Shown: piece after piece, positions 4,928 through 41,622 of the stretch | Layout of the letters: every line of letters starts with the position of its first letter | Position numbering within the stretch: position 1 is the stretch's first letter | Assembly: GCA_016840095.1 (NCBI GenBank) | Contig: JAEOSZ010000095.1 | Location: 46,060-110,059 of the forward strand | DNA: 64,000 nucleotides | DNA from: Candidatus Heimdallarchaeota archaeon | Lineage (GTDB): Archaea > Asgardarchaeota > Heimdallarchaeia > Heimdallarchaeales > Heimdallarchaeaceae | Direction of reading: 5' to 3' | Notes under the pieces: model-generated | The model's database searches: none | What the model was told of the DNA's origin: nothing | Seen by the model: only the letters and a program-made list of their open reading frames with translations | Program-made: the position numbers and the translations under genes

Positions 4928-5962
4928 TTATCCCTCTTCCAAATCTGTTGCTTTTTCCCAGTATTCAAGTGTTTTTTCTTCATCTCCAAGATCTTCAGAA
5001 ATATCTCCAAGCATTCTATAGATTCTTGCTTCATTCTTATTATGTCGTAATGCATCTTCTAGATATAAGATAGCCTTATCATAGTCTTTTGAAGCCCATG
5101 ATAGAGATGCAAGTGACACTGATGCTTCAAGGAAAGCAGGATCTCTACTCAAACACTCCTCATAGTATCTAATAGCTTCTTCGATATTTGCTATGGAAGC
5201 ATAAATATTTGCCAAATTGAAGAATCCTAGAACATTATCTGGATCAAGTTCAATCACTTTTGAAAACGCATCTATTGCTTGGATGAAATCTTGTTTTGCT
5301 TCCTGGGTTTTTCCAAGATAAAACCATGCTTGAAGATTCTCATCATTAATCTTTGAAACGGTTTGGAAATAATCTTCAGCTCTATCATAGTTATCTAGTT
5401 CGAGATAAGTTTCTCCTATTTGCATGAGAATTTTTTCATTTGTTGGATCAAGTTGTTCTGCTTTCATTAAATTATTCCAACTCTCAATTTCATTTCCCAT
5501 TTTCTTGAAAATAACAGATAATAGACTGTAAACCTCTATATTTTCTTCATATTCAATGAAATTTGAGAAAGCTCTAGTAGCACCAGCATACTCTCCAATC
5601 TCATAATATAAATGACCTATCTTATTCCATAGAAGGTATTTCTTAGGATCTAACTCACATACTTTCTTCCAGGAAATTAGTGCTTGATTCCAGTTCTTTA
5701 AGTTATGATAAACGTCTCCTAGAAGTTCCAATGTTTCAAGATTTTCAGAGTCAATTTCAATTGATTTATTAAGATAATTAAGTGCTAAATCTGGTTTATG
5801 TATTAAATAGTAGATTTTAGCAATAAAATTTAGAAAAGTAATCTCATTTTCATAATACTGTACTTGTTTCTCTAAAAGGTCTATAGCTTCCTCTATTTTG
5901 CTTTCTTCTATCAAACGTTCTGCTTCTGTTAGTATTGCAGATAAATCATTTTCTTCAAACAT
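4928..5962 (-). CDS. Tetratricopeptide repeat protein
   Basis: Successive 34-aa TPR units (e.g. AWFYLGK...AIDAFSKVIELDP). Confidence 0.93.
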   Translation of the reverse strand: MFEENDLSAILTEAERLIEESKIEEAIDLLEKQVQYYENEITFLNFIAKIYYLIHKPDLALNYLNKSIEIDSENLETLELLGDVYHNLKNWNQALISWKKVCELDPKKYLLWNKIGHLYYEIGEYAGATRAFSNFIEYEENIEVYSLLSVIFKKMGNEIESWNNLMKAEQLDPTNEKILMQIGETYLELDNYDRAEDYFQTVSKINDENLQAWFYLGKTQEAKQDFIQAIDAFSKVIELDPDNVLGFFNLANIYASIANIEEAIRYYEECLSRDPAFLEASVSLASLSWASKDYDKAILYLEDALRHNKNEARIYRMLGDISEDLGDEEKTLEYWEKATDLEEG

Positions 5963-6066
5963 TAATATCCAAACAGAAATCTTTCCTTAAGAACATTACG
6001 AAATAATGTTAATTCTAAAGGAAAGTAAAGAAAATTTTAAGTTAAACGTTAGAATTAGTATAGTAG

Positions 6067-6963
6067 ATGTTTCAGGTTATTGTAAGAAGAGATGATAAAT
6101 TTGGATATCAAATCTTAAAATCAGATGTTCCTAAAGAACTATCAAAAGATTCAATTGTCTACATGCCTGAATTATCTACAAAACAGCAACCCCATATAAA
6201 ATATAGCTCTAAATATACTCATACAACTGGGCACGTAATAATAAAACTAGTTAGAAGTGATGGTGATGATCCATTTGGAAGACCAAAATCACTAGCTCAT
6301 AGTTTAGTAATACCTTCTGAAGAATATAACTTGAATTCTCTTCTGTATTATACTTCTCCACTATACCAGACACAATTATTCGATAATATTGAAGTAGATC
6401 AAGAAATGTTATCTCAGAATATTTTTAAGAGCAGCGAAAACGAAATTCTTGAAAAAGTTGGTATATCTCAACTCAGAGAGATAATTGTGGCTGCAATGAC
6501 AGAACAAAAAGTCACTATATTGCCAAATTTAGATGAAAAAGGGATTTTTGAGCTTTTCAGCTTAATTGATAAGTCAATACCTTTTGAAGCATCATATGAT
6601 TTTTCTCTTATTAGTTACTCTGATAGAAGTTGCAACAAATTCCTTGTTCATAACATTGTTTACTTATTGGGAAAAGAACAAAAAATAAGGAGTATTGTAA
6701 GTTTAAAGAATGTAAGTACTAAAGTTCGAAAAATAGCTAAAGAAGAAGCGACATATTTAGACAACTTCATTGAAATGATTGTTCAAGAAAATTACGAAGA
6801 ACTACTAGAAGAACACGCAAAATGGATAATAGGAAAGTATCATAACGATCATAAAGATTTACAAAAGATGTTTACAAGAAGATATCAATTAGATATGCCT
6901 TTTTCAAGAAGAAACAAATTTCATGCACGACTTGTTCAATCTTTATCCAGTTATGAAAACTAA
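6067..6963 (+). CDS. Hypothetical protein, DENN-like / GAP1-N-like
   Basis: N-terminal DPFGRPKSLAHSLVIP motif; central IIVAAMTEQKVTIL...IPF pattern reminiscent of cDENN. Confidence 0.45.
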   Translation: MFQVIVRRDDKFGYQILKSDVPKELSKDSIVYMPELSTKQQPHIKYSSKYTHTTGHVIIKLVRSDGDDPFGRPKSLAHSLVIPSEEYNLNSLLYYTSPLYQTQLFDNIEVDQEMLSQNIFKSSENEILEKVGISQLREIIVAAMTEQKVTILPNLDEKGIFELFSLIDKSIPFEASYDFSLISYSDRSCNKFLVHNIVYLLGKEQKIRSIVSLKNVSTKVRKIAKEEATYLDNFIEMIVQENYEELLEEHAKWIIGKYHNDHKDLQKMFTRRYQLDMPFSRRNKFHARLVQSLSSYEN

Positions 6964-8561: not shown

Positions 8562-9704
8562 TTACAAATAGCCCTTAATTAGAGCCTTGAAATAAACAAT
8601 TTTGAATGCTTTCTTGAATAATCCATATAGAAATAAGTTGTGTAAACCAAATTTTCTAGGAGCATAGTTATAACTAAATACCAATAACATTGATCTGCGG
8701 AATGAAGTGACTACAAAACAAACAGTAAAACCTCCGTATTTCTTAGTAGGTTCCTTTCCTTTCATTTCAAGTAGAATGTTTTTTATCAGCGCAGGAGCTG
8801 AAAAATGAGCAGCTGCTCCAGATTTTGAAATTGGCATATCAGTGCAATCACCTATTGCATACATACTTTTCTGATCTTTTACTTTTAGTGTAAACTTATC
8901 AGTACGAACAAATCCTTCGCGATCTCCTATACCTGCATCGAAAATTACTTTGTGCCCAACATGAGGTGGAATTAAGACTAATAAATCGTATTCTATCTCT
9001 TCTCCTTCTAGAGAAATAATTTTTTGATTTTCTTTATCAACTTCTTCATAGTTGAAGAATTCAACAAATTCTATCCCTCGTTTGTCAAAGAGTTTTTGAA
9101 CTTTTTCAGAGACTCTTGCTTCTGGATATGGTCGCATTAGTGGATAGAGATATTTAATTGTGGTCTTATCACGTAGTTTGATCTTCCTTAGGTAAGTGTC
9201 AAGTAAAAAGGTAAATTCAGCAGGTGCGGGAGGGCATTTGTATGGTACTGTTGATGGAGAAATTACAATAGTTCCACCTTTGAAGTTCTTAAGTGCATCT
9301 TGGAATTTCTTTGTAGCATCAGCTAGATAGAAATGATGAATTTTATCATCTTCATAAGAATCAACTTGCTCTTCATCCATTTTAGCTCCTGTTGCTAAGA
9401 CTAAGTAGTCATAAAGTAGGGTTTCTCCATTAGATAAGGCAATCTGTTTCTTTTCAGAATCAATATTTGTTGCAACTGTTCTCAGCCAAGTAGCTTTACC
9501 ACTAAGGACTTTGTTCATTGGTTTAGTAAACTTAGATTGAGGATATTTCTTAAAACCCCAAAAAACGTATTGAGGTTCATAAATGTTGAATTCGTTGGGT
9601 TCAATTAAGATTACTTTGGCATCTTTTCTACGTAGTTTCCTAGCTAATTTATTAGCTACTGTAATTCCTGCAAAACCTCCACCAACAATGACTATATTTT
9701 TCAT
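8562..9704 (-). CDS. sqr: Sulfide:quinone oxidoreductase-like flavoprotein (type III-like)
   Basis: GGGFAG Rossmann motif, YDYLVLATG, YKCPPAPAEF, YAIGD, SKSG, C-terminal TVCF cysteine. Confidence 0.82.
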   Translation of the reverse strand: MKNIVIVGGGFAGITVANKLARKLRRKDAKVILIEPNEFNIYEPQYVFWGFKKYPQSKFTKPMNKVLSGKATWLRTVATNIDSEKKQIALSNGETLLYDYLVLATGAKMDEEQVDSYEDDKIHHFYLADATKKFQDALKNFKGGTIVISPSTVPYKCPPAPAEFTFLLDTYLRKIKLRDKTTIKYLYPLMRPYPEARVSEKVQKLFDKRGIEFVEFFNYEEVDKENQKIISLEGEEIEYDLLVLIPPHVGHKVIFDAGIGDREGFVRTDKFTLKVKDQKSMYAIGDCTDMPISKSGAAAHFSAPALIKNILLEMKGKEPTKKYGGFTVCFVVTSFRRSMLLVFSYNYAPRKFGLHNLFLYGLFKKAFKIVYFKALIKGYL

Positions 9705-9715
9705 AATCTAATCCT

Positions 9716-9955
9716 CTAGTGTAATTTCTTGACAATGTATTTGTCGTGATCTTCTAAGTTGATGATTTCAACTAATTCATGCTTTGCTTTCTTTATCCAA
9801 GCAGGAACATCATTACGTGTTCCTTCATCAGAACTAAGAAGAGCTAATAATTCACCAACTTCAGCTTGACGAATCATTTTAATCAATTCCATCATTGGTC
9901 CAGGACAAAAACTTCCCCTGGCATCTATTTCTATAGCGATTTCATACTCTGTCAT
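9716..9955 (-). CDS. tusA: Sulfurtransferase TusA family protein
   Basis: IDARGSFCPGPMMEL...SSDEG. Confidence 0.92.
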   Translation of the reverse strand: MTEYEIAIEIDARGSFCPGPMMELIKMIRQAEVGELLALLSSDEGTRNDVPAWIKKAKHELVEIINLEDHDKYIVKKLH

Positions 9956-10015
9956 ACATTCACCAATTGTTTCCGATTATGACATTCATCTGCACAACCG
10001 TTTTTAAGCCTTTGG

Positions 10016-10068
10016 ATTTGTATACAAATATACTATTGTACTCTGGAGTACTTGTTCGTTCTACAATA
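10016..10068. promoter_or_regulatory. Palindromic operator cluster upstream of the sulfur operon promoter
   Basis: Perfect palindrome ATTTGTATACAAAT (10016-10029); GTACTC-TG-GAGTAC (10038-10051); TATTGTA...TACAATA. TATA-like TTAAAAA on the minus strand at about 10001-10007. Confidence 0.5.
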
Positions 10069-10123
10069 AGTAAATCTGTTGAACTAGTGATATTTATTAA
10101 TAGTTAGTATACTTTATTGAATA

Positions 10124-11809
10124 ATGAATAGAAAAGCTTCAGCAGTAGTTACGATTCTACTCTTTCTTAACTATCAATTTCTATCTGTTGCAATTGATGC
10201 TTCTATACCTATTAACATTAGAAAACAAGAAGCAGAACCATATCATTGGATTTGGGAAGAGCTTTACGGAGCTCCAGGTTCCATACCTGGAGAAGATGTT
10301 GTTTTCTGGGGAGAAAATCTAGGTCCATATCATAACTATACTGAACTAAGTACAAGACTGTCGATACTCAATTCAACCTTCTCAGAGTTTGTTGATTTAT
10401 ATTCAATTGGTCAAACCTGGCATGGGAGAGAGATTTGGTGTATTAAGTTAACTAATGAAACAGTTTCTACTCCCAAAACAGAATTCTATATTGTTGGAGC
10501 TCATCATGCTCGAGAAATGATTTCTGTTGAAAATTGCCTTTATTTCATTGATAAGATTATATATGAGACTGGGTTTGGATTTTATGAAAATCTTCTAACT
10601 ACAACTGAAATCTATGTTATACCCATGCTTAATCCAGATGGTCTCTCAATCATGCATTTCTATCCTGAACAAAGAAAAAATCTCAGACCAATTGATGATG
10701 AGGGAGATAACACAACTGACGAAAACCTGGATGGTTTCCTCGATGATGAACTAGAACGACTTTATTTCTGGAATGAAACTTCTAATGCGTCTGAAATTGT
10801 GCAAGAAGACCTTGATGGTGACTTCTCAATAGGTGAAGATTTACCTGGAGGTGTAGATCTGAATCGTAACTATGGAGCTTTTTGGAATGGAACAGGTTCT
10901 TCTCCAGATAAGATAAATCCTCTTTATCGAGGACCAGAACCATTCAGTGAAAATGAAACACGTGCCATTAGAGATTTTATGAAACAACATTTCTTCAATT
11001 TTGCTTTAAGTATGCATAGTGGAATTGAAGCTATTATTCCTCCATGGGGTAACAATGGTTCTCTACCAACAAAAGATGAAGTTGAATATAATGCACTAAT
11101 GGCTGAACTAAAGACTTTGACACTATTCCCCTTCTGGAATGAAACAGCTGGTTATTTAGCAAATGGTGTTTGGACTGATTACTGTTATCTTTTCCATGAT
11201 ATTGTTTGTTTTACACTAGAAGTTTATGAAACTGTATGGAATGGTAATTATTTTGACTACTACAATCCTTCTGGAAATGGAATATTAGCTAATTGTGAGA
11301 TGGTGTTTGATGCCTTAGTTTTCATGGCTGAAGGACCTCAGTTAACATACTCAAATAGTCTACCTTCAATTACAGTATTCTCACCTAGAAGTCCTAACCA
11401 AGTATTTGATAATTATACAATTGAATGGACTATGTCTGATTTGGAAGATGAGAATCTAAATTGTTCAGTCTTGGTCTCAGCTGATGGTTTTACATGGACT
11501 GTTCTTGCAGACAACCTAATTGATGAAACAAGTTATTTCTGGAATGTAACAGATGTTCAACCTGGTTCATATTACTTGAAAATTGCAGTTTCTGATGGAG
11601 ATAATTGGATCACTGATATCGGAGAGATCAGATTAAATGTTAAAAGGGAAGTAGAGAGTTCTAGATTTGGTTTCTGGTTGTTAGCCATACTATTTGGTGG
11701 TTTAGCTGCAATTTTTATTTTCTTCAATATTAGAAAACAAAAAAGTGTTGGCAAAATGTGGGATGATGAAAAAATTACAGATGAAAAAACAGATACTGTA
11801 GACAACTAA
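10124..11809 (+). CDS. M14 zinc carboxypeptidase, secreted, C-terminal TM anchor
   Basis: HHARE, NPDG, GVDLNRN, PFSENET, SMHSG; Ig-like domain and TM. Confidence 0.92.
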   Translation: MNRKASAVVTILLFLNYQFLSVAIDASIPINIRKQEAEPYHWIWEELYGAPGSIPGEDVVFWGENLGPYHNYTELSTRLSILNSTFSEFVDLYSIGQTWHGREIWCIKLTNETVSTPKTEFYIVGAHHAREMISVENCLYFIDKIIYETGFGFYENLLTTTEIYVIPMLNPDGLSIMHFYPEQRKNLRPIDDEGDNTTDENLDGFLDDELERLYFWNETSNASEIVQEDLDGDFSIGEDLPGGVDLNRNYGAFWNGTGSSPDKINPLYRGPEPFSENETRAIRDFMKQHFFNFALSMHSGIEAIIPPWGNNGSLPTKDEVEYNALMAELKTLTLFPFWNETAGYLANGVWTDYCYLFHDIVCFTLEVYETVWNGNYFDYYNPSGNGILANCEMVFDALVFMAEGPQLTYSNSLPSITVFSPRSPNQVFDNYTIEWTMSDLEDENLNCSVLVSADGFTWTVLADNLIDETSYFWNVTDVQPGSYYLKIAVSDGDNWITDIGEIRLNVKREVESSRFGFWLLAILFGGLAAIFIFFNIRKQKSVGKMWDDEKITDEKTDTVDN

Positions 11810-11892
11810 CATAAATTGGTGAAACTAGCAAGTTTTTTAAATCTGGTATCTAATATTATTATTATTAGTGGAAAGGATTAAGGGGTTCTAAC

Positions 11893-13035
11893 ATGCAAGC
11901 TCAATTATACATAACTCTGAAGTATGTTGTAGCTGTTGCATTATTCTGTGGTTTTATTGTGGCTATTTTCTTTGGTAGACGAAGACAAAATCCATTCTAT
12001 ATCCCTTGGTCAATTTTCTTGATTTCTTTTGGTTTATTTCAACTGATGGATGCTTTAACAAACCAATATGGAGTATTGCAAAGAATTGATGATATGCTGC
12101 CACCTGTTGGTAATGATACCATTCTTTTTCGATTGCTAAATGTTACGCACGCTTTAGCCATGATATTTCTATTTGCATCTTGTTTAGAGCAATCCATGAT
12201 TGTTCCTCCAAGAGCTAGTAGAATTATTGCTGCAAGTTTAACACTATTAGTTCTCTATTTTATTGTTATTCCACTAGAAGCGACACTTTTCAGTTTTGGA
12301 ACTCTTACCATTTCCATATATGGTAGATTGTTTACAGAGTTTTATGGTTTCATTTTTGGATTCATTGTTTTGTGTAGTGCTTTCCTACTGATTCCTGTAT
12401 TCATTCGTTATCTCAAACTATCACTTATTTCAAAGAATAACAGAATTAGATGGAAAACTATTATTACTTTTACTGTGTTCTTAATGTTACTTGGTTTAGC
12501 ATTTCTTATGACTGTGAGAAGAAAAGTAACAGAGAACGGTATGAATGAAAATACTTTTGCTATTTTTGAGATAGTTTACTCTTTCTTCATAGTATCAATA
12601 ATAGCGATTTATCAGAGTCAATCTGTTTCACATGGTATTGAAACAATAATAGTTGTTGATAGGGAAGGAAATCCTCTCCTTGGTTATTCTCCTTTTAGAA
12701 GAAGAAGGATTTCATTTGAGGAAAAGATTATTGCTGCTTCTGGGTATCTATCAGGGCTTTTTCACTTCATACATGACTATGTTGCTACGACAGACAAAGA
12801 AGAATTTAAGGAGCTAAAAACCACTTCCTCTACACTTTCTTTCTATGCTGGTGAAAAGATATTTATGATTGTTCAGTCGAAAATCTCAGGGGATCGATTA
12901 GATAAAACAACAAATACAGTTCTTTCAGAATTGGACAAATATCTTGTTGATTTTGAAGCTAATAGATTACCGTCTGAAGAACAGGTTGATGATATGATCA
13001 ACTTATTGGAAAAAAATTTCTACCTAATTGCTTGA
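11893..13035 (+). CDS. 7-TM membrane protein fused to a C-terminal longin-like domain
   Basis: Seven hydrophobic segments, then IIVVDREGNPLL...SGYLSGLFHFIHD...FKEL...LSFYAGEKIFMIV. Confidence 0.65.
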   Translation: MQAQLYITLKYVVAVALFCGFIVAIFFGRRRQNPFYIPWSIFLISFGLFQLMDALTNQYGVLQRIDDMLPPVGNDTILFRLLNVTHALAMIFLFASCLEQSMIVPPRASRIIAASLTLLVLYFIVIPLEATLFSFGTLTISIYGRLFTEFYGFIFGFIVLCSAFLLIPVFIRYLKLSLISKNNRIRWKTIITFTVFLMLLGLAFLMTVRRKVTENGMNENTFAIFEIVYSFFIVSIIAIYQSQSVSHGIETIIVVDREGNPLLGYSPFRRRRISFEEKIIAASGYLSGLFHFIHDYVATTDKEEFKELKTTSSTLSFYAGEKIFMIVQSKISGDRLDKTTNTVLSELDKYLVDFEANRLPSEEQVDDMINLLEKNFYLIA

Positions 13036-13079
13036 CATTTGCACCAAAACTTATATCTTGAAAATAATATTTTCATTTA

Positions 13080-14396
13080 ATGCTATCTATTGCGTTTGTT
13101 CTTGGAACAAGACCAGAAATAATCAAACTAGCCCCGATTATTTTTGAAGTTGAAAAAAGAGAAATTATACATACTATAATTCACACAGGTCAGCATTATG
13201 ATGAGAATCTTTCTTCAGAAATTTTTAAATCAGTAGGTCTTCGATCTCCTGATTATAATCTTGAAGTTAAAACAAAAATACCACATAAACAGCTTAGTGA
13301 GATGATAGAGAAACTTGGAGAAGTTTACTTAGAGGTAAAACCATCAGTAGTATTATCTGTGGGTGATACAACTAGTGTATTAGCCAGTAGTTTAGCATGT
13401 ATTCAGACAGGGATTCCATATGGTCATGTTGAAGCAGGTTTAAGATCCTTTGATCTTACTATGCCAGAGGAGAGAAATAGAAGATTAGTTGACCACATGT
13501 CCTCAATTCTGTTTGCACCTTCTGAAAGAGCGGTAATTAACCTAAATAATGAAGGAATTGAAGCAAAGAGAATTCATCAAACAGGAAATACAACAATTGA
13601 TTCAATTCGTATTTTCAAAACTTTGATTCACAAAAAAGATACAAAATCTGCTGATATCATTCTAGAACAAGTTAATGATTTCTTTGTTCTTGCTACAATT
13701 CATAGAGTTTCAAATGTAGAAAACAAAGAGAACTTAGAAGAAATTGTGAAAGCACTAGTAGAATTCAAGGATCACTCAATCGTTCTACTTATACATCCTA
13801 GAACCATGAAAAAAATAGAAGAATATGATTTGCACAAAACAATGAAGCAAAACAAGAAACTTTATTTGTTTTCGCCAGTAGATTATCCTTCCTTACTAAA
13901 ACTACTCAAACACAAGAATTGCTTATTAGTTTTGACTGATTCTGGAGGATTACAGGAAGAAGCTGCGTACTTGCAAAAACCTTGTTTAACAGTTCGTCCA
14001 AATACAGAAAGACCTGAAACAGTTGAACATGAGATCAACTTTTTAGTTGAAATAAAAGCATCTAAAATCTTGCAAAAAATATCTCTAATTTTATCTGAAG
14101 ATTTTGAATATAGATTTTCTACTTTTAAAACTCCTTATGGTGAAGGTTATGCAAGTCAAGAGATATTAAATTTAATTGAATCTAACTTCAAATTACTCAG
14201 CTTCAAATCACCCAGTAATTATCGTTCTGGCTCAAAATCTTACAACCTTTTGGAAATGGGTGTATCTATGGATAAGGAACTTATTAAGGATCAATTTAAT
14301 TGTCAACTAGTATCTTCATTTGATGAAAATGGATATCCAAAGAAGCTTGAAGATAAATTGAAAAAAGGGGATAGGGTTAGGATTCTGAAAGATTGA
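13080..14396 (+). CDS. wecB: UDP-N-acetylglucosamine 2-epimerase (non-hydrolysing)
   Basis: GTRPEIIK, HTGQHYD, HVEAGLRS, TDSGGLQEEA, TERPE. Confidence 0.95.
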   Translation: MLSIAFVLGTRPEIIKLAPIIFEVEKREIIHTIIHTGQHYDENLSSEIFKSVGLRSPDYNLEVKTKIPHKQLSEMIEKLGEVYLEVKPSVVLSVGDTTSVLASSLACIQTGIPYGHVEAGLRSFDLTMPEERNRRLVDHMSSILFAPSERAVINLNNEGIEAKRIHQTGNTTIDSIRIFKTLIHKKDTKSADIILEQVNDFFVLATIHRVSNVENKENLEEIVKALVEFKDHSIVLLIHPRTMKKIEEYDLHKTMKQNKKLYLFSPVDYPSLLKLLKHKNCLLVLTDSGGLQEEAAYLQKPCLTVRPNTERPETVEHEINFLVEIKASKILQKISLILSEDFEYRFSTFKTPYGEGYASQEILNLIESNFKLLSFKSPSNYRSGSKSYNLLEMGVSMDKELIKDQFNCQLVSSFDENGYPKKLEDKLKKGDRVRILKD

Positions 14397-31905: not shown

Positions 31906-33465
31906 ATGAATTTTAATGTAAAAAACTATGGATTGATTTTAATGACTACATTAAAGACTAAAAAAGTTGATTTGGAAGTAGAAAGAGATTTTGCTCTACT
32001 TAATACAACTACACTAAATGATTTAAAAATTAAGCATTCTGCTAATGTAAAAGTGAAAAGTGATGCTGGCGAAATTATGTGTGAAGTAATTGCCACAGAT
32101 GAACTCATCGAACCAGGTTTTGTTGGTTTAAAATCTGGGACTCTTGAACTTCTAAAAGTAGCTCAGAATAAGAAGGTGAGTGTTTTCGTTAGACGAAGAC
32201 CAGCATCAATCGAATATGTGAAGAATAAAAGACAAGGAAGTATATGGAAAGAGGGAGAAATAAGAACTATTGTCAATGATATTTGCAGTGGCCAATATAC
32301 TGACCTAGAAATTTCTATGTTTACACTTGCTCAATATTATCTCGGATTAAATATGGATGAAATTCAGTATCTTACAACCTTTATGGCTGAATATGGAACA
32401 ACTCTTAATTTTGGGGAACCTGTTTATGATAAGCATTCTATAGGGGGAATTCCTGGAAATAAAGTAAGTCTTATGATTGTTCCTACTGTAGCTGCAGCTG
32501 GTTTACTTATACCCAAAACAAGTTCTAGAGCTATCACAAGTCCATCAGGAACAGCTGATACGATGGAAGTTCTCTGTGATGTGAACTTCTCTGCTGATGA
32601 AATATTAGAAATAGCACCTAAGGTTAGAGGTATGTTAGTTTGGGGTGGAACTTTAGATTTATCTCCTCTCGATGAGATAGTAATTCATAAAGTTGAACAA
32701 CCACTTGGAATTGATCCCCATAGTCAAATGCTTGCTAGTATCTTTAGCAAAAAAGTATCAACAGGAGTTGATCATATGGTTCTTGATATTCCAACAGGAG
32801 AGGGAACAAAAATGCCAACAAAAGAGGATGCAATAAATTATGCTCATGAAGCTACTGAACTTGGTAGAAGACTTGGAATTCAAATAGAAGCAGCTTTAAG
32901 TTACGGTGAGCAACCTCTTGGAAAAGCAATAGGTCCAGCACTTGAGGCTAGAGAAGCTCTAGATGTTCTTTCTGGTAAAGGTCCAACTAGTGTTTTTGAG
33001 AAAAGTAATGAGCTTTCTGGTATTTTATTTGAACTAGCTGGACTTGCACCAGCTGGACAAGGTGCTACTTTAGCCGCCGATTATATAACTAAAGGTAAAG
33101 CAAAAGCAAAAATGGAAGAAATTATTGGAGTCCAAGGTGGAAATGCATCTATAACAGTAGAAGAAATTGCTGTTGGAGAATATACAGTTGATGTCATAGC
33201 TCCAAAGGATGGCTACATCGTAAAATTGTCGAACTCGGCAGTCAAAAGAATAGCTAAAGCAGCTGGGACACCAAGACACAAAGAAGCTGGTGTCTATCTC
33301 CACAAGAAAATTGGTGACTTTTGCAAGAAAGATGAGAAACTAATGACCATTTATTCTAACAGTGAAGGAAGGCTAACTGAAGCTCTCAACCTAGCTATGA
33401 ATTTAAATCCATTTTTATTAGAAGGAATGATCATGAAAAGAATATCTTCTGGTGGTCCAAGGTAA
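31906..33465 (+). CDS. AMP phosphorylase (archaeal thymidine-phosphorylase family)
   Basis: DKHSIGGIPGNK, PKTSSRAITSPSGTAD, GPALEARE; N-terminal extension. Confidence 0.93.
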   Translation: MNFNVKNYGLILMTTLKTKKVDLEVERDFALLNTTTLNDLKIKHSANVKVKSDAGEIMCEVIATDELIEPGFVGLKSGTLELLKVAQNKKVSVFVRRRPASIEYVKNKRQGSIWKEGEIRTIVNDICSGQYTDLEISMFTLAQYYLGLNMDEIQYLTTFMAEYGTTLNFGEPVYDKHSIGGIPGNKVSLMIVPTVAAAGLLIPKTSSRAITSPSGTADTMEVLCDVNFSADEILEIAPKVRGMLVWGGTLDLSPLDEIVIHKVEQPLGIDPHSQMLASIFSKKVSTGVDHMVLDIPTGEGTKMPTKEDAINYAHEATELGRRLGIQIEAALSYGEQPLGKAIGPALEAREALDVLSGKGPTSVFEKSNELSGILFELAGLAPAGQGATLAADYITKGKAKAKMEEIIGVQGGNASITVEEIAVGEYTVDVIAPKDGYIVKLSNSAVKRIAKAAGTPRHKEAGVYLHKKIGDFCKKDEKLMTIYSNSEGRLTEALNLAMNLNPFLLEGMIMKRISSGGPR

Positions 33466-34045: not shown

Positions 34046-35248
34046 ATGTCTGGTTTTGATTTCGTTGAAGAAGCAATGTTCGGAAAGTCTATTTTCAAAA
34101 ATGAATCAACTCTCTATCCTGAATATGTTCCACCAGAACTACCTAGACGAGAAGAGGAGATACAAAGACTCGCTAGAAATTTTAGGTCTTTATTGGGTGC
34201 AGAAGGGTCTTTTTCAGTCAATGTAGCTATAGTAGGGAACGCAGGAATTGGAAAGACTAATTTATGCAAGTATACTATGAAAAGGTTTGAAACTACAGCT
34301 AATTCCAGAAACATAAATGTAAAGTTTCTATATTATAATTGCCACTCATTTAGGAGTAAAACAGCTATATTAAGAAATATTTTGTCAGAACATTTTCATA
34401 TCCAATCTCGTGGATTCAGTGATGAGGAAATTCTTGATATGTTGGTTAAAAGACTATCAAGAGAGGACATCAGATTGATAATTGCTCTTGATGAAGCAAA
34501 TATGTTAAATTCAGAAGATATCTTGAGTATTTTTCATGCAGGAGAATATTTTGGCTCAGAACAAAGTATGATTTCAACGATAATTATATCAAGGCCTACT
34601 GAATGGAAGTCTCTTCTTAATGTTCCATTATCAGGTCATATACATGATCAAATGGATATCTCAGGTTACTCAAGAGACCAACTATTAGAGATCCTTGAGT
34701 ATCGAGCAAGCATGGCGCTCTATCCAACTTCTTACTCTGAAGAAACTCTAAATCTTATAGCTGATATATGTGCTTCATCACAAAATGCTAGACATGGGAT
34801 TGAAATTCTCTACCGATCTGGAAAATTGGCTGACTTAAAACAAGAAAATTTTATTGTTCCTGATTACATTAGAGCTGCAAAAGCAGATGTTTACCCTGAA
34901 CTGAGAAGAGATGTTTTAGCTGAACTTAGAGATCATGAGTTATTAGCAGCTTTAGGTGTTGCTAGAAAACTTTCATTGAAAGGAATAACATCAACTACTG
35001 TGGATGAAGGTTACGATAGCTATCTCATAACCTGTGAAGAATATGGAGAAGAATCTCGCGGAAAATCAACCTTTCGATCTGCTATTGAAACATTGGATAA
35101 AGTTGGTGTAATTGGTAAAAGTGTTGGACCAATTGAAGAAGGTAAAAGAGGTAGAAGGGCAAAAATAACTACTTTTGATATACCTGCTACAGTTCTAGTA
35201 GAAAGAATTGAGAATATCTTATCAAAACCAAGAGATTCAAAGGAATAA
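34046..35248 (+). CDS. cdc6: Orc1/Cdc6 replication initiator
   Basis: YVPPELPRRE, Walker A GNAGIGKT, Walker B IALDEA, C-terminal wHTH with GKRGR. Confidence 0.95.
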   Translation: MSGFDFVEEAMFGKSIFKNESTLYPEYVPPELPRREEEIQRLARNFRSLLGAEGSFSVNVAIVGNAGIGKTNLCKYTMKRFETTANSRNINVKFLYYNCHSFRSKTAILRNILSEHFHIQSRGFSDEEILDMLVKRLSREDIRLIIALDEANMLNSEDILSIFHAGEYFGSEQSMISTIIISRPTEWKSLLNVPLSGHIHDQMDISGYSRDQLLEILEYRASMALYPTSYSEETLNLIADICASSQNARHGIEILYRSGKLADLKQENFIVPDYIRAAKADVYPELRRDVLAELRDHELLAALGVARKLSLKGITSTTVDEGYDSYLITCEEYGEESRGKSTFRSAIETLDKVGVIGKSVGPIEEGKRGRRAKITTFDIPATVLVERIENILSKPRDSKE

Positions 35249-35251
35249 AGT

Positions 35252-35485
35252 TTAGTTAACACAGATCATAGTCATAGAATTCTTTACTCCTTCTACGATT
35301 ATGTTATTGTTCAAAACTTGATTTTTTAGTTCATCCATTGTATCAAATTCAATCTTAACTATTAAATCATATATGCCATAGACTGCATAAACTTCTGTTA
35401 CTTCGACCATATCTTTGAGTCCTTCCTGTACTTTCTCTAACATACCTGATTGGACGTTTAGAAGGATGTAAGCTGCTTGTGTCAT
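35252..35485 (-). CDS. Stand-alone Lrp/AsnC ligand-binding (RAM) domain (start moved to ATG 35485)
   Basis: AYILLNV...VYGIYDLIVKI...GVKNSMT. Confidence 0.88.
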   Translation of the reverse strand: MTQAAYILLNVQSGMLEKVQEGLKDMVEVTEVYAVYGIYDLIVKIEFDTMDELKNQVLNNNIIVEGVKNSMTMICVN

Positions 35486-35580
35486 TTTTATGGTATACTC
35501 CTTTTGAACTGTTAGTTGCGAATGCATTTAAAAAAACTAACATACAGACATACCAATAAAAAAAAAGAAAAAAAGGTGAA

Positions 35581-36861
35581 TTATTGTTGTTGAATCTTTA
35601 ATCTCACTTTACATGCTGGGCAGGTTCCATTTCCTACTACCCACTGGTAAAGATGATTTTTGTGAAATGCTATATCGCATGAAGGACATCGTATAATATT
35701 CTCCTTGTTGGTTATTGTTTGCATACAAATTGAGCAAGCAACTGTAACAGCTTCATTTGTAACTAAATCGTAATTTATATCAGTACTCTTAAAATTAATT
35801 TTGTATGAATGATTTGGAGAATACTCAACCTTGTTCCTATTTAGTTCGAATTCTGATGAATTTCTAGCTCTTTTGCGTTTATAAGCCTTAAATACACTGA
35901 AAGATCCGATTATGTAGAGAATACATACAATTGTATAGATTAGTGGTTTAAAATTAAATGGTGGAGAATAGATATACGTATACTCTTCTTCAATTGTCCA
36001 TAAAAATGGCCAGTGTGAATGGTGATAATCGATAGGGATTTGATAGATGTCTTTTGAGCCAATATTAAGAAAAACTCTAGCAATATTTTCTGTTTGTATG
36101 TGATCATAATACATCCGAATCTGAATTTCATTTTCTAAATCATAACCTGAAAAGTTGAAGTTTATTTCATACCATTCACCTTCGTATACTCCTTCATCAA
36201 CATACATTTCTAATTCAGAAACATCGCTTACTGCAAAATTATCCAACATAGTTTCAACAGTATCTTGATTGGAATCTACAAGGTTAACTGTGTAATTGTC
36301 AGGATCTAAATATCTACTATTTAATATGAAGCAGAGTTTGTTAATGCTGTAATAGTATTCATAGAATCTTTCAACGCTGAAATAGTATTGTTGTTCCAAT
36401 TGTATGTTGAGTGAATAAGACCAAAGTGGATATATATCCAAAGTTGTTAAATCAAAGACACATTCCTCTATGTATAGTGAGCTTGTTCTAATTCTTACTA
36501 TTCCATTGATAGCTTCAATACTAGTAAAATGATGAGTTGTAGTATCTCCATGATTTATTAACCAGCTATCATAGATTATGTCATCTGAGTCTCGTACTAG
36601 TTCAACCATTAAGCCATTGTATGGGCCTTGAAGAGTGTTTCCCCAAGATGATACAGTAATATTAAACTCAAAAATCTCTCCTTCGATATGTAAGAAGTAT
36701 TCACTCTTGTTCATTTCTGAACTTACTTGTAATTTGTATGTCTTATCCACGGCTTCAACAAAGAATTCATTATTAGAATTCAATCCTTTTACTAAATATA
36801 GGGATGTAAATATTATTGAAAAGCAAACAAAAAAAAGAATAAGAGTCTTTGATTTTCCCAT
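35581..36861 (-). CDS. Type I membrane protein with cytoplasmic RING finger (E3-ligase-like); start moved to ATG 36861
   Basis: Signal peptide, ectodomain, TM, then CSIC...CPSC...HKNH...W...CPAC. AGGTGA just upstream of the start. Confidence 0.85.
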   Translation of the reverse strand: MGKSKTLILFFVCFSIIFTSLYLVKGLNSNNEFFVEAVDKTYKLQVSSEMNKSEYFLHIEGEIFEFNITVSSWGNTLQGPYNGLMVELVRDSDDIIYDSWLINHGDTTTHHFTSIEAINGIVRIRTSSLYIEECVFDLTTLDIYPLWSYSLNIQLEQQYYFSVERFYEYYYSINKLCFILNSRYLDPDNYTVNLVDSNQDTVETMLDNFAVSDVSELEMYVDEGVYEGEWYEINFNFSGYDLENEIQIRMYYDHIQTENIARVFLNIGSKDIYQIPIDYHHSHWPFLWTIEEEYTYIYSPPFNFKPLIYTIVCILYIIGSFSVFKAYKRKRARNSSEFELNRNKVEYSPNHSYKINFKSTDINYDLVTNEAVTVACSICMQTITNKENIIRCPSCDIAFHKNHLYQWVVGNGTCPACKVRLKIQQQ

Positions 36862-36865
36862 CAAA

Positions 36866-38953
36866 TCACCTCTTTTTCTGTTTATAAAACCCAAGTAAAG
36901 CTGCTAATCCAAGAACTGCTATAGCTACTGGCCATGATAAACCCTCAGTTTGATAATAGTGTTCATATGGTGTATATTCCGATTCATAAGTAAACCCTAC
37001 TTCAATCTGTCCAGTATGGTAGTCAGCAACAACTAGCATTAAGTATTCCTCTTCAGCCAATTCAACAGAGGCATATTTCTTGGATAGGTATTCCAAAGAC
37101 GATGCGTTGAAAACATAGATTCCAGTTTGAACTTCTTTAGAATCAGCATAAAATTGACGATTTTCTTCATCTTGGAATCGATTATCTATTCTGTATAGAT
37201 ATACATCATTATAATCTATCGCTACAGTGAAAGTTTCCTTGAATTCTACAGTTTCTGGGATAACATTGGCAATGATCACACTTACACATCCTGAAGCGAT
37301 AAGCGATACTTTTACAGTATGTTCAGCTGGAACAATTAATGAATCAACTTGAGAATCAATTTTATTTATTAAAATCGTTGAACTATCTATATCTGCTGCC
37401 ATTATATCGTAGAAGTCATGGCTATCGCTAAATATAATTCCATAAGAATCATCATTTGAAGCACCTGTTAGGCGCAATATCACTTGTTGATTTGGCATAA
37501 GAGTTATCTCTTTTTTACTAGAAACAGGTATGATGGAATATTCATAACTGCTAGAAAGATCTACTATTTGTTCTTCTGAAAAAATTTCGTTTCCAATCCA
37601 ATCCTTTGTATATATTTTATAGTATAGGTTTTGATCTTGATAGTCGTATGCTAGTGATAAACAGTAAGAATCATTGAATAAAGATGTTGCATTTGAAATG
37701 GTCCAAAATGGAGTATTATCAAATTTGTAATATATTTCTACAAATGGTATGCCAGTTACATCCTTTACCTCACTCATAATGGTGACAAATTTTTCATCGG
37801 TTAGAAAGTCTTCACTGAAGTAAATCCAAGTATCAATTTCAGGAGGAATCTCATCTAGAAGAACTACAAATTCTCTCGCAAAAAATTCTCTGACTCCTGG
37901 GTCAATTTCATAAGTTAGATTTGCTATGATTTTGAAATCTAATTCAATTGAATACAGTACTATTAACTCTCCAATTAAGTCTGGAATATCTTCAGTTTGA
38001 GGATATTCAGTTCCAATTTCGATGTATGTACCACCAGTTATATCAGCTCCTGGTATTAATTCTCCTCTAGTAATCTCTTGAGCTGTACTAGATCCACCAC
38101 TTGCCATTATAGGACAGAGAATAAAATTTTCTGCTGCATACTGTCCATATAATTCTATAAGATCACTATTGAATCTTATTAATGATCCACTATTATTTGG
38201 TTCATCAGTAATTACAATAACTAACTTAACTGCATTTAATCTCCACTCAAGATAGTTCTTAGCACAATACAAAGCATCACCCCAGGGCTCTTGACCACCT
38301 GAAGTTCCTCTATTAGAAAGGACATCGACAATAACTGAAATATCTGAAGTTAGATGAGTAATCAAACTATTTGATATCAATGGATTATACAAAGGATCTC
38401 CTCCAAAGAGTATCAATCCAACACGAAGGTCAGGAACTTCAGCTTTAATCTCATCAACAACATTGATTAGCTCCTCTATTAGAGCGTCTATCTCATCGTT
38501 CATCGATCCAGATTGATCAAGAACAATAGCAAGATCAAGAGCTTCAGAAGCTGTTCCTCCCTCTGTTACTGTTACAATTGTTTTTTCATCAGTTATCCAT
38601 GATTCTCCAGCTGCCAATGAATCCTTTGAAAATAAAGTTGGATCCAGAACTGCACCATAGCCATTTGTTTCTGTAGAAACCTCCAATAAATTCATTTCTT
38701 GATCTGAAATGTTTGTGATATTGAAGCTAGCAGAGAAAGAATCACCAGGTCGTACACTTGGAATGTTATCCTCTCTTTGAGAAGGCAAGTTAGTTATCAT
38801 TTCAATTGAAATGTTATCTGTTGCACTTGTTATATTAGTCTCTAAAGGACTTGTTTCATTTAAAAAAAACTCAGTTTTAGAATGTGCTTGAATGCTAGGA
38901 AGAATCATAGCAACCAGCACAAAAGTCAAAATAATCTTTCCTTTTATTTTCAT
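36866..38953 (-). CDS. Secreted vWA-domain surface protein with C-terminal anchor (start moved to ATG 38953)
   Basis: MIDAS DQSGS, GGQEPWGDAL, VIVITDEP; C-terminal TM then KQKKR. Confidence 0.88.
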   Translation of the reverse strand: MKIKGKIILTFVLVAMILPSIQAHSKTEFFLNETSPLETNITSATDNISIEMITNLPSQREDNIPSVRPGDSFSASFNITNISDQEMNLLEVSTETNGYGAVLDPTLFSKDSLAAGESWITDEKTIVTVTEGGTASEALDLAIVLDQSGSMNDEIDALIEELINVVDEIKAEVPDLRVGLILFGGDPLYNPLISNSLITHLTSDISVIVDVLSNRGTSGGQEPWGDALYCAKNYLEWRLNAVKLVIVITDEPNNSGSLIRFNSDLIELYGQYAAENFILCPIMASGGSSTAQEITRGELIPGADITGGTYIEIGTEYPQTEDIPDLIGELIVLYSIELDFKIIANLTYEIDPGVREFFAREFVVLLDEIPPEIDTWIYFSEDFLTDEKFVTIMSEVKDVTGIPFVEIYYKFDNTPFWTISNATSLFNDSYCLSLAYDYQDQNLYYKIYTKDWIGNEIFSEEQIVDLSSSYEYSIIPVSSKKEITLMPNQQVILRLTGASNDDSYGIIFSDSHDFYDIMAADIDSSTILINKIDSQVDSLIVPAEHTVKVSLIASGCVSVIIANVIPETVEFKETFTVAIDYNDVYLYRIDNRFQDEENRQFYADSKEVQTGIYVFNASSLEYLSKKYASVELAEEEYLMLVVADYHTGQIEVGFTYESEYTPYEHYYQTEGLSWPVAIAVLGLAALLGFYKQKKR

Positions 38954-39088
38954 TTGTATCAATATATCATTATTCTGAGATATTAATAAATGTTTCTCAT
39001 GTGGCTGTTTTTGCCTTTCTAATTCACCCTTATAAAGAGATATCAAAATTCCGATATGTTTATATAGTTCTTTTGTATTTTTTACTTA

Positions 39089-39481
39089 ATGTCAGAAAAA
39101 CACTTCGAAAAAATGATTAGTTTACTTGAGGACATTAGTAGTAGGTTGAAGAGAATTGAAGACAAATTAGGTGATGAAGTAGCAGTTCAATCTGGTGTTT
39201 CTGCTTTAGATATACTCTCTAAATCTGCTCTTGATTCTGGTATTAAGATAAACAAATCACACATCAAAACCTATTTCACTGTTCAAAAGATTGGTAAAGC
39301 TACTTGTAAAGAAGTCGCAGAAGTTACAGGTAGAGCTTTCAATCTAGAATCTAGATATCTTGTAGCATTATTTAATGAAGGATTTTTAGATAGAGAAAGA
39401 GTCCCAATTCAAAAACCAAGTAAAGATAATCCTGCTGGTCGAGGTACTGAAGTAAGATATTTTGTTAAGGAGAGGAAATAA
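39089..39481 (+). CDS. Coiled-coil plus winged-helix DNA-binding protein
   Basis: ATCKEVAEVTGRAFNLESRYLVALFNEGFLDRER...VRYF. Confidence 0.8.
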   Translation: MSEKHFEKMISLLEDISSRLKRIEDKLGDEVAVQSGVSALDILSKSALDSGIKINKSHIKTYFTVQKIGKATCKEVAEVTGRAFNLESRYLVALFNEGFLDRERVPIQKPSKDNPAGRGTEVRYFVKERK

Positions 39482-40246
39482 ATGAAAACAATTAGTGTAC
39501 ATAGTTATAAAGGTGGAACTGGTAAAACAACCTTTCTACTCAATATTGCTGGGTTACTTGCTAAGGAAGGAGCTAAGACTATTGCAGTTGATTATGATCT
39601 GAGAGCTCCATCTTTTCAATCCTATTTCAAAGTGGAAAATCCATTATATTTGTCAGATTATCTTCTAGAAGGTGCTTCTGAATCTGAAATTATCTTTCCT
39701 TGCATAGCAAGTAATGGTATTAAATTGGATCTAATATTCTCTTCGATGGAATTTCTCAAACAACATTCACAACAAAGGGACAAATTATCAAGAGATGATT
39801 CAAAATATCTAACTAAGCTATTTCAATTGCAAAGTAATTTATCTGAAAAATATGATTATATGTTACTAGATACGATTCCTGGTTTCTTTTACCGTTCGAT
39901 TGATTCAATGATGGTTTCGGATATCATAATTGTAATTGCTACACCCAGTGTTTCGAATATTTTGGGATTGAATGAGTTAACAGATAATATCTATGCTATG
40001 TTGAAAGAAGACACAAAGATGATTTTATTGATTAATAAGATAGATGAAGAAGGAATTGAAGCAGATAAGGAACTTTTTGAAAAAAGTTTATCAACGCTTA
40101 AGAGAATAGGTAAAGAAAAATTCTCTTCTGTGCTTGAAATACCATATTTAAACATTTTGAGCGAAAGAATATACGCATTTGAAGATGAAATTCCAGAAGA
40201 GTTTATGAAAGCAATAAAAGAAATAATGAATCTAATGAAAGGGTAA
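39482..40246 (+). CDS. ParA/MinD family ATPase
   Basis: Deviant Walker A SYKGGTGKTT, VDYD, YMLLDTIPG, LINK. Confidence 0.92.
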   Translation: MKTISVHSYKGGTGKTTFLLNIAGLLAKEGAKTIAVDYDLRAPSFQSYFKVENPLYLSDYLLEGASESEIIFPCIASNGIKLDLIFSSMEFLKQHSQQRDKLSRDDSKYLTKLFQLQSNLSEKYDYMLLDTIPGFFYRSIDSMMVSDIIIVIATPSVSNILGLNELTDNIYAMLKEDTKMILLINKIDEEGIEADKELFEKSLSTLKRIGKEKFSSVLEIPYLNILSERIYAFEDEIPEEFMKAIKEIMNLMKG

Positions 40247-40248
40247 AA

Positions 40249-41622
40249 ATGGCTGAAAGTAAAAAAGCAATTGGAAATGGAGAGCTAGAAAAAATACGCG
40301 ATTATCTTCAAGATTCAAAGAAAAACATAGACCGATTAAAAAAAGGTAAGAAACCTAGAAGAAAATTGCGTTTCGTAATTGCTGAACACAAATTTGCTTT
40401 TACATTGCTTTCTCTCATGCTGATGACAACTCCTTTCATTCCCTTAATGCTTCCAGGAGAACCTCCACCGATTTATCAACCTCCAAACTATGAATCTGTT
40501 GAACTAACTGTAGGTCTAATTGATTCCAATTTTACAGACCAAGATGGTTATCCAGTCTACGAAAAAACAGAAGCAAATACTTCTTCTGAGCTAATAATAT
40601 TGTCTTCTTTGACAAATTCTATGCTTTTACAAGCAGGATATTTACCTGAAAATGAGGAAATATACAGCAAGATTTCACTGATTCAGGACATTCTTATTAA
40701 TAGAACTTTTAGAGACGTTGAAAATCTTGATGAAAACCTAACTATCACCGAACAAATTATTGGATTGTATACTTTAGTTCAAGCTTACTTTTCTCTACAG
40801 GGAACTAACCATTCTTTTAGCTCCTCTATTATTGGTGCTGCTTATGCTACTTTGATTAACAATTATTTTGATTACAATGAAAAATTACTCTTTCAACCTA
40901 CTACTAACAGTAGTTATTTTATTGATCAAGCACTAGTTGTTTGGTTATTAACAACTTATCAGTTAGTGTTTGATGAGGATTATATTTATCATACTGTTTA
41001 TCCTGCTGATTATTATGTTGATTATCTTCTTGACTCAATTTTTCTCAATTTCGTAAATTATACAAACAACATTTTTTACAGTGAATATAATGTTACTTCA
41101 GGTGAAAAAGCTGTTGTAGCTAATTCTTTGGATCTTTCGTTCCTATCTGTTGGATTATCTAGAATTGAGAAACTACGACATTATTATTTCTATTATAGTA
41201 GTTATTATGTCCATCAAAAGGTAGTAAATGATTTTATTGATGAAAACTGGATTGTTCATGAAACGTACAAGAGCGATGATATTCGAGTATTAAAGAATCA
41301 AGCATATTTTGCTCTAAGTTCATATCTGATGAGTTTGAACACTCTCGGATCTGAACTAGTAAACTCTACAAAGCTGAATTATCTGGCTGGAGATGGATTT
41401 TATCAAGATTTAACTGATTATAAAATAACTGCTGAATCATGTTTATATGGACTATTAATTTTCGCAAGTAATGAATGGTCAAAGATACAGATTGAAAGAG
41501 AATATAGAGATGATATACCAACAGAATATACTTATCCTTCACTGTTTTGGAGTCTTCTAGCAACTCTTTTCCTTGCAATAGTGGTGCATAGAAAAACAAA
41601 GAAGAGAAAAAATTCATGGTGA
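40249..41622 (+). CDS. Surface protein with N-terminal TM and C-terminal anchor
   Basis: TM near residue 48-68, helical ectodomain, C-terminal TM plus RKTKKRK; stop codon overlaps the tRNA 3' end. Confidence 0.75.
   Translation: MAESKKAIGNGELEKIRDYLQDSKKNIDRLKKGKKPRRKLRFVIAEHKFAFTLLSLMLMTTPFIPLMLPGEPPPIYQPPNYESVELTVGLIDSNFTDQDGYPVYEKTEANTSSELIILSSLTNSMLLQAGYLPENEEIYSKISLIQDILINRTFRDVENLDENLTITEQIIGLYTLVQAYFSLQGTNHSFSSSIIGAAYATLINNYFDYNEKLLFQPTTNSSYFIDQALVVWLLTTYQLVFDEDYIYHTVYPADYYVDYLLDSIFLNFVNYTNNIFYSEYNVTSGEKAVVANSLDLSFLSVGLSRIEKLRHYYFYYSSYYVHQKVVNDFIDENWIVHETYKSDDIRVLKNQAYFALSSYLMSLNTLGSELVNSTKLNYLAGDGFYQDLTDYKITAESCLYGLLIFASNEWSKIQIEREYRDDIPTEYTYPSLFWSLLATLFLAIVVHRKTKKRKNSW

Follow-up and report, generated by a model that had tools for sequence, protein, structure and literature searches.

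The use of ubiquitin to sort and down-regulate membrane receptors counts as a hallmark of eukaryotes. To our knowledge, neither a membrane substrate nor a ligase directed to the membrane has been connected with the genes for ubiquitin, its activating (E1) and conjugating (E2) enzymes, RING proteins and the ESCRT complexes for endosomal sorting that Asgard archaea carry. For Asgard archaea, reconstitution of an E1/E2/RING cascade has been achieved (bioRxiv 10.1101/2023.07.25.550441), and in the RING ubiquitin ligase (E3) of Caldiarchaeum subterraneum the exchanges I30Q, W58A and R69A impaired ubiquitylation (PMC5654768); the Caldiarchaeum and Asgard operon RING E3s are, according to these publications, small proteins whose genes lie within ubiquitin operons (PMC5654768; bioRxiv 10.1101/2023.07.25.550441). 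Here, we analyzed a gene pair in 64,000 nucleotides (nt) of a Candidatus Heimdallarchaeota archaeon (assembly GCA_016840095.1, contig JAEOSZ010000095.1, positions 46,060–110,059, forward strand; this whole stretch is termed the window). The pair encodes a surface protein with a von Willebrand factor A (vWA) domain, P0001, and a protein predicted to comprise an ectodomain, a transmembrane (TM) helix and a cytoplasmic RING finger, P0002, for which a first-pass annotation of the same DNA had proposed a receptor-coupled ubiquitin ligase. The reading to which we incline, by a narrow balance, is that the two proteins form a surface complex in which the RING tail delivers E2~ubiquitin to the membrane, with both subunits encoded by an operon specific to Heimdallarchaeaceae.

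In the window, which has a G+C content of ~32%, P0001 (ATG at 38953) and P0002 (ATG at 36861) are consecutive open reading frames (ORFs) on the minus strand, and their junction sequence confirmed the 4-nt spacing claimed at first pass. A Shine-Dalgarno-like GGTGA element at the junction overlaps the vWA stop codon, and no T-run is present within these 4 nt. The T-rich run beginning 6 nt past the stop codon of the RING gene is likely the terminator closing a bicistronic unit. The narrow gap together with a single TATA-like box before the first gene and a single T-run after the second supports the operon that had been proposed. The pair is a real and not a chance feature, since both families are conserved in at least 20 genomes with the same 4–5-nt gap or 4-nt overlap.

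The tail of P0002 follows the pattern C-x2-C-x12-C-P-x-C-x4-H-x2-H-x3-W-x6-C-P-x-C, in agreement with the finger noted at first pass, and all eight ligands are invariant among 16 homologues. The Pfam zf-RING_2 profile (PF13639; cut-off 27.3 bits) matched the whole of P0002 with 31.3 bits and the isolated tail with 34.5 bits, spanning profile positions 3–44 of 44, i.e. 42/44. A sequence search of the PDB with the finger yielded 22 matches, all of them RING E3 ligases and almost all RING-H2, including Arkadia, RNF165/ARK2C, EL5, RNF38, RLIM, RNF24, ZNRF3 and RNF126. In these alignments the second Cys of the CPSC motif occupies ligand position 3 and His403 the usual ligand-6 Cys site; as the usual ligand-4 His is missing, the first Cys of CPSC presumably substitutes for it. 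The same C4H2C2 pattern was observed in several paralogues and in other Heimdall-class RINGs. In the Caldiarchaeum finger, which is active in vitro, ligands 3 and 4 are likewise displaced and an additional Cys is found near ligand 3 (PMC5654768), and I30, W58 and R69 of that protein correspond to I378, W407 and K418 of P0002. Residue 378 is I or V in 16/16 sequences, W407 and P415 are invariant, and the linchpin position 418 following ligand 8 is K in 14/16, R in 1/16 and N in 1/16.

A PHD-like finger, which the first-pass annotation had named as the finding that would speak against its RING assignment, is rejected on the basis of a PHD score of 13.3–15.3 bits (cut-off 24) compared to the 31–34 bits for zf-RING_2, of the His at ligand 6, of the G-T preceding C414, and of the location of the Trp, which lies four residues after ligand 6 as in RING-H2 fingers, whereas PHD fingers have it two residues ahead of ligand 7. 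C1 and IBR readings were rejected as well, with Pfam scores far under the respective cut-offs and the Trp position also arguing against them. The finger is thus RING-H2-like as judged from its sequence, and appears to belong with the archaeal RING-H2-like E3s; some homologues have already been named "E3 ubiquitin protein ligase" by the NCBI pipeline. The mean pairwise identity amounts to 76% for the finger, 37–42% for the two halves of the ectodomain and 22% for the TM helix, and this high conservation of the finger relative to the ectodomain points to a conserved cytoplasmic partner.

Hydropathy analysis located two hydrophobic segments in P0002, residues 6–24 and 306–324. The AlphaFold model (mean pLDDT, the predicted local distance difference test score, of 69) comprises an amino-terminal hydrophobic helix, an ectodomain consisting only of strands (39–266), a low-confidence stalk, a TM helix (305–331) and a small carboxy-terminal finger. 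Based on the positive-inside rule, the KRKRAR stretch following the second segment places the RING in the cytoplasm. The predicted topology is therefore that of a signal peptide, an ectodomain, a single TM helix and a cytoplasmic RING, consistent with the order of elements given at first pass. The 45-residue linker before the finger contains four invariant residues, Y347, P349, F357 and Y364, and 4/7 of the sequons of P0002 are located in the ectodomain. The acidic residues D91, D106, E164, D253 and D278 of P0002 are likewise invariant.

The ectodomain itself is predicted to be an orphan tandem β jelly-roll. Its first domain aligned with small jelly-rolls (PirA, p24 GOLD, PPC/collagen-binding and SID1 N-domains) at VIA Z values of 9–11, a range common among unrelated sandwiches. 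Assignment of a specific fold was rejected, as Foldseek against the PDB gave template modelling scores of at most 0.23 (SID1, CBM, CUB) and VIA generic jelly-rolls only, and the ESM-Atlas shape and feature searches were uninformative, with only a weak PPC lead. A protease-associated (PA) domain was rejected likewise, since no PA family appeared among the Pfam hits at E values up to 1 and the modelled region 39–266 contains strands only and no helix. Searching 1.84 billion representative proteins with the ectodomain profile yielded 19 matches, mostly proteins of 400–470 residues or fragments and of the same architecture, one of them a marginal match within a repeat protein of 4086 amino acids (aa). 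This confinement to the same architecture indicates an orphan domain that occurs only together with this RING. Homology between the ectodomains of P0001 and P0002 was rejected (hhalign probability 4%).

For P0001, the vWA domain with a metal ion-dependent adhesion site (MIDAS) recognized at first pass is borne out by the Pfam VWA score of 35.5 bits (cut-off 23.8; residues 140–257), with VWA_2 at 30.5 bits (cut-off 27), as well as by the MIDAS residues, of which D146, S148, S150, T249 and D250 are invariant and T215 is nearly so in 21 homologues. The AlphaFold model based on these 21 homologues reached a mean pLDDT of 82 and displays a β-sandwich, the vWA domain, further β-sandwiches and a TM helix, the latter followed by a basic tail of 5–7 residues. 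The hydrophobic segments determined by hydropathy are residues 3–21 and 671–689. An NCBIfam search did not yield any PGF-CTERM/archaeosortase signal, and the carboxy-terminal segment is accordingly treated as a plain TM anchor. Ten N-x-S/T sequons fit exposure outside the cell. The vWA fold was recognized with VIA Z values of 17.5–19 to many vWA proteins (integrin I domains, TFIIH p44, ITIH, Rpn10, Sec24). Foldseek with the whole chain ranked a pilus-tip adhesin and integrin headpieces at the top, and integrin β chains aligned over residues 96–366 at Z values of 17.6–18.8, level with TFIIH p44, ITIH, Rpn10 and Sec24. The scores are thus level across all vWA folds; the modelled build is adhesin-like, and a specific kinship with integrins cannot be claimed.

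To delineate the distribution of the pair, we used profiles of both proteins. Among 301 Asgard genomes, full-length matches to the whole-RING-protein profile were confined to Heimdallarchaeaceae (genera g1, g3, g4 and g5; not g2), and outside this family only the finger matched. The ~440-aa proteins with a carboxy-terminal RING in a sister Asgard family were considered as a further occurrence of the architecture and rejected, as they have only an amino-terminal hydrophobic segment. Both profiles were scored on 29 Heimdallarchaeaceae genomes: 21 contain both genes and six neither; in one, the RING gene is represented solely by a fragment at a contig end; one closed genome (G074) has a RING remnant without the vWA gene, and the vWA gene alone was found in none (0/29). 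The synteny survey suggested at first pass showed the vWA gene directly upstream of the RING gene in every locus with a full-length homologue, and the 4–5-nt gap or 4-nt overlap is kept in orthologous loci at protein identities of 28–35%. In G074 the vWA gene is absent genome-wide and the RING gene is truncated and lacks a signal peptide; the rearrangement took the vWA gene, a divergently transcribed MinD operon and the RING gene's 5' end together, which looks like a single deletion. At this locus (L060, C1:1193000-1212000, 9385-13268), a DDE transposase lies beside the rearrangement and an HD-domain gene is now located upstream. In another genome (G086, locus L061) the RING gene is interrupted, either by a frameshift or stop or through an assembly error. 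A full-text literature search found no description of the family, the pair, the five-gene module described below or any archaeal protein of ectodomain–TM–RING architecture.

The first-pass annotation treated the pair as a unit, which holds; it missed that the pair is half of a module of five genes, the other arm being an operon coding for a possible winged helix-turn-helix (wHTH) protein, a MinD/ParA-type ATPase and a membrane protein. For the 130-aa possible wHTH protein, the best PDB sequence match was the TFE winged helix with a non-significant E value of 0.17–0.41. Throughout the family, in four genera, the gene order AMP phosphorylase–Cdc6–AsnC–pair–MinD operon has been retained along a stretch exceeding 15 kb. 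In the distant lineage represented by locus L072, the genes beyond both ends of the block differ, yet the five genes are kept together in this different context and the pair is still joined, making L072 the more telling case of linkage than adjacency or co-loss. The block is absent as a unit in genus g2, between the AsnC and 12-TM genes, and one lineage has five other genes inserted between the two arms. The five-gene block has thus been gained, lost and relocated as a unit.

The two arms are separated by 135 nt containing two related boxes. The inverted repeat ATATC-N8-GATAT in front of the divergent operon is the sole exact match in the window, and in six loci a box TAT[ACG]TTGA[TG]AT precedes the vWA ATG by 2–12 nt; five other loci, from four genera, show both boxes at their orthologous promoters. 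One further copy of the complete vWA promoter with its box is present in the genome, on contig C82. There, the 48 nt upstream of a gene for a 363-aa orphan protein (C82:7827-8918, minus strand; amino-terminal anchor, no Pfam match) are nearly identical to the vWA promoter, with the same TATA-like box, ATAATGATATATTGATAC box and ATG, and this orphan is probably co-regulated with the pair. In locus L061 (C2, ~5730-6500), the MinD operon and the vWA gene are separated by an inserted gene carrying the sirtuin motif GAGIS..SGIPDFRS, which has operator-like boxes on both sides.

Features of the gene pair, the divergent operon and their control regions (positions in the window)
Feature	Position	Strand	Basis or remark
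T-rich run T7-C-T9, likely archaeal oligo-T terminator	35558-35574	-	begins 6 nt past RING gene stop
P0002 gene, ectodomain–TM–RING protein	35581-36861	-	426 aa; ORF and translation
P0002 predicted layout: signal peptide or anchor 6-24, two β jelly-roll domains 39-266, stalk, TM 305-327, conserved linker 343-366, RING 376-418	35581-36861	-	
RING finger, residues 376-418; C4H2C2 ligand set; I378, W407, P415, K418 at E2-binding/linchpin positions	35608-35736	-	zf-RING_2 above cut-off; same place in genome search
P0002 TM helix, residues 305-327	35881-35949	-	hydropathy; AlphaFold helix 305-331; basic stop-transfer KRKRAR next
Intercistronic gap TGA tttg ATG, 4 nt	36862-36865	-	junction read ...AGAGG TGA tttg ATG
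P0001 gene, vWA surface protein	36866-38953	-	695 aa; ORF and translation
P0001 predicted layout: signal peptide 1-20, N-terminal β-sandwich 48-128, vWA 138-335, β-sandwich domains 339-656, TM 674-694, short basic tail	36866-38953	-	
vWA domain, residues 138-335	37949-38542	-	MIDAS D146-x-S148-x-S150 coded at 38504-38518, plus T215, T249-D250
Likely promoter of the pair	38956-38990	-	TATA-like TTTATTAATA at 38981-38990
Box ATAATGATATATTGATAC (18 nt)	38956-38973	-	between TATA-like box and vWA ATG; ends 2 nt before ATG
Inverted-repeat box ATATC-N8-GATAT and TATA-like box of divergent operon	39040-39067	+	box 39040-39057, directly upstream of TATA-like TTTATATAG 39059-39067
Divergent three-gene operon travelling with the pair	39089-41622	+	Pfam, NCBIfam, hydropathy; block-wise conservation, loss and relocation
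Possible wHTH protein, 130 aa	39089-39481	+	
MinD/ParA-type ATPase	39482-40246	+	Pfam and NCBIfam
Membrane protein, 457 aa: basic N-tail, TM 50-68, ~360-aa ectodomain, TM 428-446	40249-41622	+	hydropathy

Directly downstream of the RING gene, at 34046-35527, are an Orc1/Cdc6 gene, 74–85% identical across Heimdallarchaeaceae, and a gene for a stand-alone 91-aa Lrp/AsnC ligand-binding domain; a replication origin may lie nearby, and neither gene follows the five-gene block in locus L072. Further along, at 31906-33465, an AMP-phosphorylase-like protein contains Glycos_transf_3 and PYNP_C domains, with a borderline Molydop_binding match at its amino terminus (26.8 bits, at cut-off).

We next consider the host genome, a metagenome-assembled genome of a Heimdallarchaeaceae member (3.44 Mb, 165 contigs, 89% complete), consistent with the closest homologues being named Candidatus Heimdallarchaeota or Heimdallarchaeaceae. 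The absence of a ubiquitin system would, according to the first-pass annotation, have spoken against a ligase; the genome encodes two ubiquitin-like proteins, one ending in GG-L, three ThiF/E1 proteins and four proteins matching UQ_con, namely two catalytic E2s (H-P/A-N and active Cys) and two resembling ubiquitin E2 variants (UEV). The genes of the two catalytic E2s are located at C49:101504-101875 and C159:20922-21395. One catalytic E2 carries the RING-contact motifs YPFKPPK and WTPA; in UbcH5, loops of this type contact RINGs. At a contig end (C118:14236-21563), adjacent genes form an ESCRT–ubiquitin supercluster comprising two Snf7 genes, EAP30 (ESCRT-II), a 455-aa UEV/Vps23-like protein without catalytic Cys, an E1 and the GG-L ubiquitin. 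A second ubiquitin cluster (C159:20922-26382) consists of an E2 (HPN and Cys), a 295-aa RING protein, a ubiquitin-like protein and an E1, and its RING protein has three hydrophobic segments and looks membrane-bound. Three tandem RING-protein genes (414, 153 and 311 aa; 2/3 with TM segments) are located at C11:39703-41880, and several of the RING proteins of this genome share the CPxC...H-x2-H ligand pattern. Overall, a genome search gave 17 RING matches, of which 12 are in proteins with hydrophobic, predicted TM segments, and this share of predicted membrane-bound RING proteins suggests that archaeal ubiquitination may center on the membrane.

In the two-subunit ligase reading that we favor, P0001 would display a metal-dependent vWA binding domain on a β-sandwich stalk, and tight translational coupling would provide equimolar subunits associating via their ectodomains. 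Through its RING tail, P0002 would draw one of the two catalytic E2s, charged with ubiquitin, to the membrane's inner face, with possible targets being nearby lysines on the tail of the partner or on its own, the co-encoded 457-aa membrane protein or other cargo, and ubiquitination could set surface abundance or relay a binding signal. The other arm of the module, sharing the operator-like boxes, would probably control or position the pair. The gene structure, the domains, the topology as a prediction, the RING identity, the conservation, the behavior of the module and the presence of ubiquitin, E1, E2 and ESCRT genes are secure, whereas complex formation, E3 activity, substrates, regulation and any ESCRT link are inferred. 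Ligand-triggered ubiquitination of membrane cargo and ESCRT sorting, as envisaged at first pass, are purely conjectural. Several observations weigh against the favored reading. The finger has a C4H2C2 and not the canonical C3H2C3 ligand set, and its AlphaFold model, with a helix at 401–411, is of moderate confidence (pLDDT 61–82). We infer the P0001–P0002 complex from coupling and co-distribution, and, with synteny extending family-wide, adjacency alone is weak evidence and the co-loss of neighbors is to be expected. No ubiquitin, E2 or ESCRT gene is present near the locus, nor does the locus contain any link to the ESCRT cluster, which is on another contig. Finally, a genome-wide scan with the operator box consensus showed no enrichment (19 matches with up to three mismatches vs 24–30 in shuffles), so that the regulon, if any, is small.

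The main rival, which we consider unlikely, takes the finger as a zinc-stabilized docking module and not a ligase. It would tether the surface complex to one of the co-encoded proteins, the MinD/ParA ATPase or the wHTH-like protein, or to the cytoskeleton, and this link would serve positioning or transcriptional signalling in a ubiquitin-independent manner. The constant company of the MinD/ParA operon with its shared operator-like boxes, the lack of any ubiquitin-system gene in the module and the non-canonical ligands all suit such a module, for which the invariant Y347, P349, F357 and Y364 of the linker could form a separate docking site. It sits poorly, however, with the conservation of the three positions at which mutations impaired E2/E3 function in an archaeal RING, with the finger being the most conserved part of P0002 and finding its only significant matches among RING-H2 profiles and PDB E3s, and with E2s in the genome that have intact RING-contact loops. 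Slightly less probable again is an extended scheme in which the five-gene block by itself makes up an outside-in signalling device: an integrin-like two-chain receptor of MIDAS and RING subunits would sense a surface or ligand, and the RING tail would ubiquitinate either the receptor tails, leading to ESCRT-dependent turnover, or the MinD/wHTH switch, thereby resetting a small regulon of its own including the orphan surface-protein gene on another contig. If true, this would be receptor-coupled ubiquitin signalling predating eukaryotes.

More doubtful than either scheme is that P0001 is an independent adhesin and P0002 an unrelated membrane E3, with adjacency reflecting nothing but inherited gene order. 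While the long conserved gene order across four genera and the lack of shared homology between the two proteins would allow for this, the spacing has been kept despite the low protein identity, the pair remains joined in L072 with different flanks on both sides of the block, one TATA-like box precedes and one T-run follows the pair, and no genome has the vWA gene without the RING gene. The lowest probability we assign to a surface system that evolves fast and has a self/non-self or anti-viral role, for example as a virus receptor, a decoy or a cell–cell recognition device, with the RING causing the receptor to be removed once engaged; this concerns the biological role and could coexist with a ligase mechanism. 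Ectodomain identities of 28–45% compared to 70–85% for flanking housekeeping genes, an orphan ectodomain family limited to one archaeal family, and the varying presence of the module, with a transposase at one deletion, would be in line with it. Against these stand the single-copy, syntenic nature of the module, which is not on an island, and the invariant MIDAS and many invariant ectodomain residues, unlike an arms race at a binding site; moreover, the PADLOC defence models did not match the module beyond weak generic ATPase hits.

Comparing the locus with described systems, the divergent arm resembles FlhG/FleN- or MinD-type circuits that control or position surface organelles, in having a deviant Walker-A ATPase and a small DNA-binder-like protein beside surface-protein genes and repeated boxes at both divergent promoters. 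It differs in that flagellar, archaellar or pilus genes are absent here and the 130-aa protein is only a putative DNA-binder. P0001, in turn, shares with the integrin β headpiece and the Gram-positive pilus-tip adhesins PitA and SpaC a MIDAS-bearing vWA domain flanked by β-sandwiches on a membrane-anchored or surface stalk and the pairing with a second single-pass subunit, whereas it lacks integrin-specific domains as well as sortase or pilin signals, and its partner is not a β-propeller. With the Caldiarchaeum E3, P0002 has in common the RING-H2-like finger, the extra Cys near ligand 3 and the matched mutated positions, and, as for the operon-encoded E3s of Caldiarchaeum and Asgard archaea, cognate E1, E2 and ubiquitin genes are present in its genome; in contrast to these, it is a 426-aa predicted type-I membrane protein encoded far from any ubiquitin gene.

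The closest match in architecture is to the eukaryotic receptor-type RING-H2 ligases, i.e. ZNRF3/RNF43, the PA–TM–RING proteins GRAIL/RNF128, RNF13 and RNF167, and the plant RMR and ATL/EL5 proteins, with which P0002 shares the predicted layout of signal peptide, ectodomain, one TM helix and cytoplasmic RING-H2-class finger. ZNRF3, EL5 and RNF24 are themselves among the sequence matches of the finger, and the E2-contact residues are conserved. P0002 differs from these ligases in its all-β, tandem jelly-roll ectodomain without PA signal, in having Cys as ligand 4 and His as ligand 6, in the separate vWA subunit and the MinD/ParA operon that are encoded along with it, and in its host, a prokaryote without known endosomes. 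The likeness to RNF43, ZNRF3 and GRAIL drawn at first pass therefore holds for the topology and not for the ectodomain, and in the absence of a PA domain it is one of architecture, by analogy, and not of ancestry. With the full receptor-type layout and a candidate partner or substrate encoded 4 nt away, P0002 may serve as a testable archaeal counterpart of the receptor-type ubiquitin ligases, and the pair offers a concrete, clonable system for asking whether membrane ubiquitination preceded eukaryotes.

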